Both the position numbers and the translations under genes were made by a program. Below, in pieces: positions 32,294-48,297 of a DNA stretch of 64,000 bases. The notes below the pieces were generated by a model, which saw only the letters and a program-made list of their open reading frames with translations, did no database searches and had not been told where the DNA came from. This stretch comes from Escherichia phage vB_EcoM-ZQ3. Location of the stretch: sequence record MW630116.1. The stretch is one strand, 5' to 3'. Every line of letters starts with the position of its first letter. The first letter of the stretch is position 1.

Positions 32294-32301
32294 TATAAAT
32301 A
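32294..32301 (+). promoter_or_regulatory. late promoter TATAAATA for gene 4
   Basis: exact TATAAATA 27 nt upstream of gene 4 ATG. Confidence 0.5.
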
Positions 32302-32308
32302 ATAATAC

Positions 32309-32316
32309 TATTTATA
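32309..32316 (-). promoter_or_regulatory. late promoter TATAAATA for gene 53 (divergent)
   Basis: exact TATAAATA on minus strand about 43 nt upstream of gene 53 ATG. Confidence 0.45.
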
Positions 32317-35778: not shown

Positions 35779-35814
35779 GTTTACATAAGGATGATGGCGT
35801 GTTACTATCATCCT
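35779..35814 (+). promoter_or_regulatory. early promoter cassette with palindrome
   Basis: GTTTAC...TACTAT with AGGATGAT/ATCATCCT inverted repeat flanking the -10. Confidence 0.5.
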
Positions 35815-35842
35815 ATCAAATAAACGACCTCAAGGAAATAAA

Positions 35843-36130
35843 ATGAAAACCTATAAAGAATTTATATCACCTGTTGCTAACGTTTCTACTCTGACCGAAG
35901 CAACCCTTACTTCCGAAGTTATTAAAGCAAATAAAGGACGTGAGGGTAAACCAATGATTAGTCTGGTTGACGGCGAAGAAGTAAAAGGTACTGTTTACTT
36001 AGGGGATGGATGGTCTGCTAAGAAAGATGGCGCTACTATTGTTATCTCTCCGGCTGAAGAGACTGCACTGTTTAAAGCTAAGCATATTTCTGTAGCTCAG
36101 CTTAAAATTGTTGCAAAAACTCTTCTGTAA
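35843..36130 (+). CDS. internal protein (IPI-like) with capsid-targeting N-terminus
   Basis: 95 aa; N-terminus MKTYKEF resembles T4 internal-protein capsid targeting sequence MKTYQEFIAE; position after 57B as T4 ipI. Confidence 0.7.
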   Translation: MKTYKEFISPVANVSTLTEATLTSEVIKANKGREGKPMISLVDGEEVKGTVYLGDGWSAKKDGATIVISPAEETALFKAKHISVAQLKIVAKTLL

Positions 36131-36133
36131 GTA

Positions 36134-36173
36134 GTTTACATGCTGATAGGACTATGTTATAGTAGTCCTATCA
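36134..36173 (+). promoter_or_regulatory. early promoter cassette with palindrome
   Basis: GTTTAC then GATAGGACTAT/ATAGTAGTCCTATC inverted repeat. Confidence 0.5.
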
Positions 36174-36199
36174 AATCAACAACCAAACGGAAAAAACAA

Positions 36200-36463
36200 A
36201 TGAAAACGTATAAAGAATTTATCGCTGAATCTCAATCTTCTACTCTGTCAGAGAACTACGAATCATTCTCTTACAACAACGACCATGCAATGTTCTACGA
36301 CCGAAACATCGGTACTTATGTCCATGTGTGGGGTGTTAAAGATGGTAACGTAGTTGTTAAGAAAAACTCTAAAGAAGGCAATGGTCGTGGCCAGGTAAAA
36401 ATTACCAGCAAGAAAGCTATCCAAGCTTACGTCGATTATGTTAAACGCGAAGCTGGTATTTAA
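36200..36463 (+). CDS. internal protein-like small protein with capsid-targeting N-terminus
   Basis: 87 aa from MKTYKEFIAE-SQSS; gp21-type cleavage context after Glu10. Confidence 0.6.
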   Translation: MKTYKEFIAESQSSTLSENYESFSYNNDHAMFYDRNIGTYVHVWGVKDGNVVVKKNSKEGNGRGQVKITSKKAIQAYVDYVKREAGI

Positions 36464-36465
36464 TA

Positions 36466-36505
36466 GTTTACATGATGATAGGACTATGTTATAGTAGTCC
36501 TATCA
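36466..36505 (+). promoter_or_regulatory. early promoter cassette with palindrome
   Basis: near-identical copy of cassette at 36134. Confidence 0.5.
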
Positions 36506-36525
36506 AAACATGAGAGGATAATAAA

Positions 36526-38114: not shown

Positions 38115-38188
38115 TAATTTAAACGAAGTAAATTAAGTGCTCTATCCAAATAATAAATACTCCTATATTTTATAGGAGATAATTGGTA

Positions 38189-38854
38189 ATGAGCATTTGT
38201 AAACATTGTAATATGGAATTTGATATTTCTAATAAACCTAAAGGATGGATGGCTAACCACACTAGATGGTGTAAATCCAACCCTAAATTGGAATTGTATA
38301 AAGAAAGTTCTAAATCAGCCATTGCAGCAATGAATAAAGCACGTATAGCTTCAGGTAATTTAAACCAGTATGTTGTATCTAAAAAGACTGGTGTCCCTGT
38401 AGTAATTTCGGAAGAGACTAGACAAAAATTGTCAGCCGCTTCATTAGGTAGAGAACACTCTGAGGAATCTAGAATAAAAATATCTAATGCTCGGAAAAAA
38501 TGGTTGAATGAAAACCCTGATAAACATCCTTGGAAGAAAAATACAAAATTTAAATCTGTGCCTTGTGAATTTTTGAAATCTAAATTAATAGAAAACGGAA
38601 TTTCATTTATTGAAGAATACCAACCGGTTAAAAACCGAGCGTATTGCACGGATATTGCTTTAATAGATAAAAAGATTATTATTGAAGTTAATGGAAACCA
38701 ACATTACTCCAATCCTAAGAAAAAGATTTTGGCCCCTTATTATAAAGAACGCCATGATATTATAAAATCATTAGGATGGGAAATATATGAACTTCATTAT
38801 GCTGAAGTTTATAAAGAAGATATTGTAAATAATTTAATTGCCTCTATAGTGTAA
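38189..38854 (+). CDS. putative homing endonuclease (Zn-finger / NUMOD3-like / C-terminal Vsr-DUF559-like nuclease domain)
   Basis: 222 aa from MSICKHC; CxxC...H..C N-terminus, NUMOD3-like ETRQKLSAASLGREHSEESRIKISNARKKW, C-terminal IIEVNGNQHY...D...GWEIYEL; located in tRNA cluster like T4 segB. Confidence 0.6.
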   Translation: MSICKHCNMEFDISNKPKGWMANHTRWCKSNPKLELYKESSKSAIAAMNKARIASGNLNQYVVSKKTGVPVVISEETRQKLSAASLGREHSEESRIKISNARKKWLNENPDKHPWKKNTKFKSVPCEFLKSKLIENGISFIEEYQPVKNRAYCTDIALIDKKIIIEVNGNQHYSNPKKKILAPYYKERHDIIKSLGWEIYELHYAEVYKEDIVNNLIASIV

Positions 38855-41181: not shown

Positions 41182-41253
41182 TTTACAAACTCTTGAGAGC
41201 AGAGTATAATGCTCTCATTGGATAATAAACACCACCAATTGAAAGGTAATAAT

Positions 41254-41847
41254 ATGAACACACTGAAGAAACTTGTTGAATTCATCCGCACTAAACTGGG
41301 TACTGCTATGGCTAAAAATCTGACTGTCGAAGAACAGTATAACGCAGCTGCAGATAAGTTGATTACCCAAATCAAAGAACTAAAAACGGCTTCTGTTAAA
41401 TCTATTAATGAAGAAAAACGTATTCGCGAACTTGTTATTGAAAAGAATAAGCAAGCCGCTTCTAAGGAACGTGAAATTCGTAAGCTCCTGGCTGAAGGAC
41501 AAGATGTTACCATGCATGCTAAGCTTGGTCTTCTGTATCGTCGAACTGCCGAACAACTTAATACAAAAGCTGACGGGTACGCTGCTATGCGAATTGAAAT
41601 TGCTCGTAAGGTGGTTGAACTTGACGATGCTCGTCAGAATCTGGCAATCAAACTCGAATACATTCGTGAAACTCGAGCAGCTAATGCCCTTGGTATCTCT
41701 ACGGCTGATGATGTAATTGAAATCGCTGCACTAACTAAGGTTGATATCGAAGACACTCTGACTCGTGTTGAAACGTTCAATGGCACACCAGCTGGTGTCG
41801 AAACCACTTCTGCTGATGTACAAGAATATATTAACTCTTTGAAATAA
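41254..41847 (+). CDS. hypothetical coiled-coil protein
   Basis: 197 aa from [10 protein letters not shown]; heptad-rich; RBS GAAAGG. Confidence 0.5.
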
Positions 41848-44047: not shown

Positions 44048-44287
44048 ATGATTTATTACGAAAGTATCGGAACCAAAGTGGTTGGTAAAACCATTACTCG
44101 TGAAAAGTTTGCAAAGATATTCGATATGCGTTATAAAAAATCTGAACACAAAGGCATCCGATTCGAAGATGCACATTGTACAATTTGCCCTTATAATGAA
44201 GATATAAATGGTACAATCGTTCCATTGGTAGAGGCTTCACATGACGACCTCTGGGATGAATATAATATCGCATGTCGCGAAATTTAA
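44048..44287 (+). CDS. hypothetical protein
   Basis: 79 aa from MIYYESIG; GGAG RBS 7 nt upstream. Confidence 0.5.
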   Translation: MIYYESIGTKVVGKTITREKFAKIFDMRYKKSEHKGIRFEDAHCTICPYNEDINGTIVPLVEASHDDLWDEYNIACREI

Positions 44288-45549: not shown

Positions 45550-45589
45550 GTGTACAAACTGATAGGGCTATGTTATAGTAGTCCTATTA
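45550..45589 (+). promoter_or_regulatory. early promoter cassette (variant -35 GTGTAC)
   Basis: near-identical to cassette at 43990. Confidence 0.45.
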
Positions 45590-47091: not shown

Positions 47092-47327
47092 TGAGTATAG
47101 CAATTTACATTAAATCAGAATCATGTGATAGTTATCTGTACACATACGATAAAGACGTGTCAGAAGAAAAAATCAAAGACGATCTTAATATGGACCTTGA
47201 TATGTTCTGTCCTATTGCAGATTACAAACTTGCGGTCTCTAATAGTGAAAGTCCATCTAAAGAAACGCGCATTGAAGAATTTATGTCCGAATTAATGGCT
47301 AAATCATGGGACCGAGATGATGAGTAA
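47092..47327 (+). CDS. hypothetical acidic protein
   Basis: 78 aa from MSIAIYIK; RBS AGGAATTTGAG. Confidence 0.45.
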
Positions 47328-47774
47328 GAAAAATAAAGTGAAAGAACTATCAGCCGGTATTATTTTCCTTACCGAAGATAAAGAATTATTCATGGGGCGT
47401 GTAACTGGTTCTCGTCCTAAAGGTTCTTTAGCTCATCGGTGGGATATTCCTAAAGGACGTGTCGAGCCCGCCGAATCTCCTATTGAAGCCGCTATTCGCG
47501 AATGCGAAGAAGAAACTGGGTTTACACAATATGACCTGCCTTCCTGAAAGACCTAGGTGAACATCATTACTCAGACAATAAGAATATTCATCTGTTCCTA
47601 TATACCATCCCTGTAGAGCACGAGCAATTCAGAAACAGTGTTTGTAATTCCTATCATACATTCCCAGACGGACGACAGATTCCTGAATTTGATGCATTCG
47701 CTTTAATTAAACCTTCTCAATGGGAATATGTAATGGGCAAATCATTATATAAGGTGCTCACTACCCTCCTATAA
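47320..47774 (+). pseudogene. nudE: Nudix hydrolase NudE homologue interrupted by a -1 frameshift near 47535-47545
   Basis: N-terminal 74 aa with Nudix box GRVEPAESPIEAAIRECEEETG ends at TGA 47545; C-terminal 77 aa continue in the -1 frame to 47774; sum 151 aa equals intact T4 NudE. Confidence 0.6.
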
Positions 47775-47808
47775 GTAATAAATACCTCCTATAAACGTGG
47801 GAGGTATT

Positions 47809-48297
47809 ATGAATATATTTGAAATGCTTCGTAATGACGAAGGTCTTAGACTGACTTTATACAAAGACACCGAAGGCTTTTGGACGATTGGCATAGGCCA
47901 TTTAGTAACAAAGAACCCGTCTTTAGCCGTAGCTAAAGCTGAACTTGACAGAATGATCGGTCGTAAATGCAACGGTACAATTACCCTTGATGAGGCTGAA
48001 AAGCTATTTAATGAAGACGTTGATAAAGCCGTTCGCGGAATCTTGGGTAATGCTAAACTTAAACCGGTATATGATTCTTTAGATGCAGTTCGTCGATGTG
48101 CATTGGTCAATATGGTCTTCCAAATGGGTGTAGCAGGCGTCGCAGGTTTTACTAATTCTCTTCGTATGCTTCAACAGAAACGTTGGGATGAAGCGGCAGT
48201 AAATCTAGCCCAATCTAAATGGTATCGTCAGACACCTAATCGCGCGAAACGCGTAATCTCAACATTTAAAACAGGAACTTGGAAAGCGTATATATGA
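47809..48297 (+). CDS. e: lysozyme (endolysin)
   Basis: 162 aa from [31 protein letters not shown]; catalytic Glu11/Asp20/Thr26 context conserved as in T4 lysozyme. Confidence 0.95.

Follow-up and report, generated by a model that had tools for sequence, protein, structure and literature searches.

The lysozyme gene leader of an RB69-like Mosigvirus: a very likely orthologue of the T4 gene e translational timing switch

The leader of the lysozyme gene e is a classic case in which mRNA structure and a choice of transcription starts together control translation. In bacteriophage T4, early transcripts run into e, yet they form an inhibitory structure that hides the initiation region, and lysozyme synthesis is reduced approximately 100-fold (McPheeters et al. 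1986, NAR 14:5813, as reviewed by Uzan & Miller 2010, PMC3014915). Transcripts from either of two late promoters located just upstream lack the 5' strand of this structure and, by the same account, are well translated; the legend to Fig. 5 of the review reports mapped 5' ends for an upstream late promoter (PMC3014915). The review also states, partly by extension through prediction, that close relatives of T4 keep the hairpin together with a late promoter encoding its 5' strand, and RB69 is absent from the lists given there of phages without the structure or without e (PMC3014915).

Here, we describe the e leader in a stretch of 64,000 nucleotides from Escherichia phage vB_EcoM-ZQ3 (MW630116.1), referred to as the window. 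The original prediction, made from the sequence, was that this leader reproduces the T4 arrangement. Our analysis supports it by homology and by comparison of leaders: the gene is orthologous, the leader is homologous, a stem buries the Shine–Dalgarno (SD) sequence and the promoter box is conserved. We consider it very likely that the leader is an orthologue, of the RB69 type, of the switch that times translation of T4 gene e. The arrangement has already been described in kind, probably for this very leader, and is known and ordinary; its function in the RB69 lineage is a predicted one, with a mechanism that would follow mainly from homology to the T4 experiments.

Gene e, its neighbours and the leader hairpin

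The genes and the hairpin elements of the locus are as follows.

47317-47774, + strand: nudE, on the same strand upstream of e, with a 1-nt frameshift and its TAA at 47772-47774 (open reading frames and comparison with relatives)
47781-47792, + strand: 5' arm of the hairpin, AAUACCUCCUAU, including the anti-SD CCUCC (RNAfold MFE and centroid; 8-bp core read directly)
47793-47796, + strand: hairpin loop AAAC in the 12-bp MFE fold (RNAfold)
47797-47808, + strand: 3' arm of the hairpin, GUGGGAGGUAUU, with the SD GGAGGU at 47800-47805 (sequence and RNAfold)
47809-48297, + strand: gene e, T4-type lysozyme/endolysin of 162 aa starting MNIFEMLR... (open reading frame; Pfam PF00959 Phage_lysozyme, E = 7.5e-14)

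Judged by sequence identity, the window comes from an RB69-like Mosigvirus: the region is 98% identical to RB69 and to approximately 150 other Mosigvirus genomes, and 78-90% identical to T4-type phages. The gene order nudE-e-ip-denV is that of RB69, and T4 has the same order with different ip genes. In related phages the gene is annotated as e, lysozyme or endolysin, and the product in the window begins MNIFEMLR..., as T4 lysozyme does. Going by the Pfam match, the synteny and 78% nucleotide identity to T4-type e, the open reading frame at 47809-48297 is the orthologue of T4 e.

The start codon of e is annotated in two ways. The RefSeq record of RB69 (NC_004928; L002 2025-2498) begins the gene at the second in-frame ATG, Met6, which lies 15 nt downstream and corresponds to window position 47824; the T4-type e start is preceded by a strong GGAGGT SD, and other Mosigvirus records, such as MM02, take the upstream ATG. 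The leader device places the true start of e at 47809.

The upstream neighbour carries a 1-nt deletion in a run of C residues near 47555 (GACCTG, versus GACCCTG in RB69 and in the loci L004 and L005). The nudE frame ends early at a stop codon at 47545-47547, and its C-terminal 74 codons go on in another frame to the TAA at 47772-47774. In the best 10 of 152 phage records, the 121-nt query aligns to 122 bases at 99.2% identity, and every one of these listed matches shows the gap. The deletion reflects either an error of sequencing or a pseudogene private to this phage; should the frameshift be genuine, ribosomes would no longer stop translating 7 nt ahead of the e hairpin. Over the 350-nt stretch that comprises nudE and the e leader, the window differs from RB69 by one silent-looking substitution in addition to this indel, and the leader itself is the same in both.

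The hairpin can be read directly from the sequence. ATACCTCC at 47782-47789 is complementary to GGAGGTAT at 47800-47807, which gives a perfect 8-bp core around the loop TATAAACGTG (47790-47799), and the ATG occupies 47809-47811; arms, loop and start codon all lie exactly where they had been predicted. The earlier description of an 8-bp stem with a 10-nt loop is correct for this core, but the MFE fold from RNAfold is longer, with a 12-bp stem (47781-47792 / 47797-47808), a 4-nt AAAC loop and two G.U pairs, the top of the stem consisting of U.G, A-U and U.G. Similarly, GGAGG (47800-47804) does lie in the 3' arm, but the SD is separated from the ATG by 4 nt (TATT) rather than by the 2 nt first proposed; it is the 3' core arm that stops one base (47808) short of the ATG. 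The whole of GGAGGU is contained in the 3' arm, and the -14..-5 region is paired with a mean probability of 0.79.

The hairpin has an energy of -16.3 kcal/mol, with z-scores of -4.4 in a 61-nt context and -6.1 in a 40-nt context, and none of 200 shuffled sequences was as stable; in a 201-nt fold the same hairpin is the dominant local element. Among 70 SD-bearing open reading frame starts in the window, the e leader ranks first for fold stability of the -40..+6 region (-16.3, the runner-up reaching -13.5). A perfect 8-bp hairpin alone is no rarity, as the window contains 27 distinct examples with loops of 3-12 nt, versus approximately 13 expected from first-order Markov simulations; it is the position and the conservation of this one that go beyond chance. 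A search of Rfam gave no family at or above the gathering threshold for the e leader, and three tRNAs were the only reports across the window.

Candidate late promoters and predicted early read-through

The e leader aligns column for column and without ambiguity with that of T4 (TATAAATACCTTCTATAAATACTTAGGAGGTATTATG; T4 leader, TTTTATAAATACCTTCTATAAATACTTAGGAGGTATTATG). Three candidate boxes are present, and none of the three is a perfect TATAAATA.

47770-47777, + strand: TATAAGTA, a late-like box with one mismatch that overlaps the nudE stop codon, predicted +1 near 47783 (motif scan)
47777-47784, + strand: AATAAATA, a probable gp55-type late box (-13..-6), predicted +1 near 47790 inside the hairpin (alignment with T4, motif statistics)
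47790-47797, + strand: TATAAACG, a degenerate copy of the second (loop) late promoter of T4 (alignment with T4 TATAAATA)

The original prediction recognized late-promoter likeness both in the loop and upstream of it, and only the upstream part is supported: the box AATAAATA aligns with the upstream TATAAATA of the T4 leader, whereas TATAAACG in the loop is most likely a decayed relic. The position of AATAAATA relative to the 5' arm is constant in every lineage, and we infer that the upstream late promoter of T4 with mapped 5' ends is the box aligned to it. Its deviation from consensus is a familiar one. A(-13) is the commonest natural variant of the late promoter, with A replacing T at 9 of the 50 listed T4 sites (PMC2988020), and position -13 is often A or T in RB69-type phages (Nolan et al., PMC1524935). 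Across the window, AATAAATA boxes are enriched 10-45 nt upstream of open reading frame starts (4/11, P = 4e-4), and one such start-proximal box, at 14033-14026 on the minus strand, corresponds to the promoter Pl:97979 predicted by Nolan. A +1 near 47790 would remove nine of the 12 stem pairs, and the leader from this position folds as an open structure (-5.1 kcal/mol, z -1.4). At the motif level, then, a gp55-type box of a recognized variant is present with its predicted +1 inside the hairpin, and 47777-47784 is probably the box that matters.

The loop box fares differently. Two positions of TATAAACG are off consensus, and a 2-nt deletion relative to T4 follows; its predicted start at 47803 falls inside the SD and would truncate it. 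Boxes of this sequence are not enriched near gene starts in the window, and double deviations are rare among T4 late promoters (2/50; PMC2988020). TATAAACG is most likely a dead relic of the second promoter of T4. A pair of late promoters of the T4 kind was not found at this leader, where the second box has both decayed and shifted. The leaders of L012, L024 and L015, which correspond to JS98, VR20 and CC31, also have a single box, and possession of two promoters is a trait of T4 itself and not of the mechanism.

The main rival to the timing switch concerns the third box. If late transcription began at TATAAGTA, with a +1 near 47783, or further upstream, all e transcripts would carry the hairpin, which would act as a constant throttle or a 5' stabilizer rather than as a switch, and the temporal model would fail. 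TATAAGTA does differ from a late box at a single position, and the leader from 47783 retains the hairpin at -13.9 kcal/mol. In addition, the 43-nt hidden Markov model of Nolan et al., which yielded 31 late promoters in RB69, gives none at approximately 65,700 on the minus strand, the position of the e leader. However, TATAAGTA is confined to the RB69 type among the leaders compared and shows no enrichment near starts in the window, whereas AATAAATA has a T4 counterpart, a fixed place in all lineages and a common type of deviation. We regard a constant throttle as improbable. As for records of transcription starts, the GenBank and RefSeq entries of T4 hold no promoter features near e, and a literature search for RNA-seq transcription-start-site data from RB69 or T4 found nothing usable.

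Elsewhere in the window, 32294-32316 contains two perfect TATAAATA boxes on opposite strands, 8 nt apart, forming a divergent late-promoter pair that appears to match the RB69 predictions Pl:80613(+) and Pl:80684(-) of Nolan.

For the hairpin to act on early mRNA, transcription has to reach e from upstream. All open reading frames from approximately 40 kb to 64 kb lie on the + strand. In RB69, early promoters are predicted upstream of e at Pe:67959 and Pe:69254, and TransTerm reports no terminator in 59,939-71,365, so that none lies between these promoters and e (PMC1524935 supplements). In our scan of the window, sigma-70-like sites occur at corresponding positions (45551-45579 and 44170-44197 are examples), and the hairpin is not called as a terminator.

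Another set of promoter-like sequences in the window lies far from e. Direct repeats of 47 nt at 36132-36178 and 36464-36510, 96% identical and 332 nt apart (also 35800-35865 / 36155-36222), look like tandem T4-type early promoters (GTTTACA ... TATAGT) with an inverted repeat, GATAGGAC/GTCCTATC, inside them. A small paralogous open reading frame follows each one and starts with MKTYKEF, an N-terminal motif that recurs in the open reading frames just downstream of e (48294, 49139), where related phages annotate internal head proteins.

One Mosigvirus record, MM02 (MK373784.1; L058 584-607), labels the e hairpin as a 24-nt 'putative transcriptional terminator, -12.00' that ends 2 nt before the e coding sequence. 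On such an account the hairpin would be an intrinsic terminator or attenuator ending the early nudE transcript, and the silence of e early in infection would be transcriptional. The stem is indeed stable and, like a Rho-independent terminator, it forms a stem-loop at the end of the upstream gene. It differs from one in what surrounds it: the stem is followed by AUGAAUAUAUUUG (tail AUGAAUAU), which has three U in 8 nt and no U-tract, and its 3' arm serves as the SD for the gene that follows. The hairpin is also missing from both terminator scans, that of the window and the TransTerm list of RB69, and the homologous T4 hairpin lets early transcripts into e, as described in the review (PMC3014915). 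With no U-tract and no call in either scan, we reject its identity as a terminator and hold this account to be very unlikely; the MM02 label is probably a misannotation by an automatic tool, and in Mosigvirus the 'terminator' at this place is more probably a translational operator.

A third account would make the leader a target of a phage RNA-binding protein or nuclease, either with RegA on the UAA-rich UAAGUAAUAAAUA (47772-47784) or with the hairpin shielding GGAG from RegB; control would then depend only in part on secondary structure. The review mentions that selection with RB69 RegA (SELEX) yields AAUAAUAAUAAnA-type RNAs and that RegB cleaves GGAG in the SD sequences of early mRNAs (PMC3014915), and the leader holds three UAA triplets and a GGAG. 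However, the nudE stop codon and the late promoter box together account fully for the UAA-rich stretch. Where RegA sites are known, they overlap the initiation region instead of lying upstream of a hairpin, and structure alone explains repression in the T4 data. The likeness of UAAGUAAUAAAUA to the RegA-selected RNAs may be a coincidence, and we give this account hardly any credence.

Conservation of the leader and related modules

The 61-nt leader was found in 757 phage records, 132 of them at 99% identity or more and the remainder at 80-95%. Compared with T4-type phages, the noncoding leader is 90% identical over 48 nt and the e coding sequence 78%, which makes the leader at least as conserved as the gene that it precedes. 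For a comparison of structures, 54 IMG/VR loci encoding e relatives were fetched. Of these, L004-L026 (23 loci) were taken along with the window and T4, which gave 17 distinct leader windows of 51 nt. Alignment, and folding with shuffles, used 16 distinct core leaders, representing T4 and relatives whose lysozyme is 60-100% identical to that of the window.

All 16 distinct leaders contain an [A/T/G]ATAAATA box that abuts or overlaps the 5' arm, and an SD-burying hairpin that covers GGAG. The hairpins range from -7.5 to -16.6 kcal/mol with z-scores of -1.8 to -6.1 in windows of 36-42 nt, and reach -20.9 in 51-nt windows. Where the box is [A/T]ATAAATA (13 leaders), late leaders predicted to start six nt past it fold at only 0 to -4.4 kcal/mol. 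Several changes keep the pairing: L024, corresponding to VR20, has CCCC/GGGG for CCUCC/GGAGG, with U-A changed to C-G; T4 and L014 have C-G changed to U-G; and L004 has U-G changed to U-A. In the L013-L022 group, of which L015 corresponds to CC31, a 1-nt deletion shifts the register and GGAG is still covered; the lower stem is lost in this group and the upper stem is perfect, CUCCUAUC/GAUAGGAG. The lower stem is eroded in L025 and L026.

Covariation in the MAFFT alignment of the 16 leaders was not significant: 78% of the cells are paired, double changes occur in only two pairs, and a score as high as the observed one was obtained in 57 of 500 shuffles. The signal is weak because the sequences are too conserved and because the register shift of L013-L022 was left ungapped by MAFFT. 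As far as these sequences indicate, the comparative support consists of a conserved design and homology to T4, and not of strong independent compensatory evolution. Complementarity by chance, without function, has practically no probability left: although approximately 13 perfect 8-bp hairpins would be expected in 64 kb, this one is the strongest initiation-region structure in the window, its leader recurs in the 757 phage records at a level of conservation not below that of the coding sequence, it is kept across genera with pair-preserving changes, its T4 homologue has been validated by experiment as reported in the review (PMC3014915), and the conservation data effectively refute this reading.

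A covariance model, R1, was built from 11 leaders. With it, the window scores 56.6 bits and T4 50.7 bits, both being in the training alignment and so matching by construction. A search with R1 recovered only training sequences and their duplicates, in addition to weak matches at 38150-38185 (E = 0.5) and 41222-41256 (E = 0.9), and it missed L013-L022. The match at 41222-41256 does not fold (z = +0.66) and was rejected as a further leader.

The region of the other weak match is of interest in its own right. At 38152-38177, AATAAATA is directly followed by CUCCUAUA-uuu-UAUAGGAG, a hairpin of -8.8 kcal/mol (z -2.5) that buries GGAG. The leader of this second module (38152-38188) precedes an open reading frame of 221 aa (38189-38854) located between tRNA-Asn and tRNA-Arg. 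Its 5' half, TAATAAATACTCCTATA, matches the e leader almost exactly, and the cassette common to both consists of TAATAAATAC(C)TCCTATA, a loop and a 3' arm with GGAG. The encoded protein is endonuclease-like, with a DUF559/Vsr-like C-terminal domain, and sporadic in distribution: it occurs in only 33 phage records, from Escherichia, Klebsiella, Providencia, Acinetobacter and Rhizobium phages, and in these it is often left unannotated or named homing endonuclease. The open reading frame probably encodes a free-standing homing endonuclease whose translation is confined to late infection in the manner of I-TevI/mobE.

More distant homologues of e have different leaders. In L027-L042, whose lysozymes are at most 62% identical, the stems that pair with the SD are weak or non-significant (z -1.1 to -3.0), and these loci were excluded as evidence. 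Within this range, L028-L038 and L041 (51-57% identical) have unrelated leaders whose SD still lies within a short stem. In L028-L038 this is UUCCUU/AAGGAA, closing a (C)TTAAATA- or TTAAGTA-like loop; in L041 it is a long-range GCCUCUU/AAGAGGGC stem. These weak stems reflect either the same strategy or chance.

Proposed mechanism and comparison with known systems

The timing switch would work in four steps. Early and middle transcripts from the predicted upstream early promoters would, given the gene order, pass through nudE into e and carry both arms of the hairpin. On these transcripts, the computed 12-bp stem of -16 kcal/mol would shut GGAGGU off from the 30S subunit, and by the effect known from T4 no lysozyme would be made despite the presence of e mRNA. 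Once replication has begun, RNA polymerase modified by gp55, gp33 and gp45 would start at AATAAATA (47777-47784), as homology and motif statistics suggest. As this box shares sequence with the base of the 5' arm, the resulting transcript, beginning near 47790, would lack CCUCC; its SD is computed to be free, and lysozyme would be translated only late. Such a device would explain how the endolysin gene can be transcribed early without premature lysis of the host. The loop promoter has decayed to TATAAACG, and therefore the switch probably relies on one promoter, an A(-13) late promoter on which the RB69 type as a whole is probably dependent. A more far-reaching view, which we put forward as a rather doubtful one, is that Mosigvirus has rebuilt the two-promoter switch of T4 in a tighter one-promoter form, in which the box is of the A(-13) kind, the loop promoter is dead and the stem is longer and more stable, and that its cassette is a portable 'translate only late' module, transferred from gene to gene or invented anew.

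Among the systems described, the leaders of I-TevI, mobE, soc and gene 49 in T4-type phages follow the same logic, in which early read-through mRNA is silent and a shorter late transcript is open; according to the review, the SD and/or the AUG lies in a helix and a late promoter lies near the 5' strand (PMC3014915). They differ in that the genes are others and the leaders are non-homologous, and the relation to the e leader is analogous, not orthologous.

The T4 e leader is alike in the orthologous gene, the same upstream neighbour (nudE/e.1) and the homologous leader, with an anti-SD arm ATACCT(C/T)C, an SD arm GGAGGTATT and the ATG one base past the stem. A late box extends into the base of the 5' arm in both phages, and here this is predicted to place the late start inside the stem. 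Nevertheless, the two differ in detail. Both boxes of T4 are perfect TATAAATA sequences, the first lying upstream and the second in its 8-nt loop, whereas the window has AATAAATA upstream and, in the loop, TATAAACG with its 2-nt deletion. The T4 stem has a core of 9-10 bp with one U.G pair and an A/U-rich lower helix that also extends over the AUG, at -14.7 kcal/mol; that of the window has 12 bp, a 4-nt loop and two G.U pairs at the top, at -16.3 kcal/mol. The e leaders of RB69 and other Mosigvirus phages do not differ from that of the window, and the differences lie only in annotation, namely the Met6 start in RB69 and the terminator in MM02.
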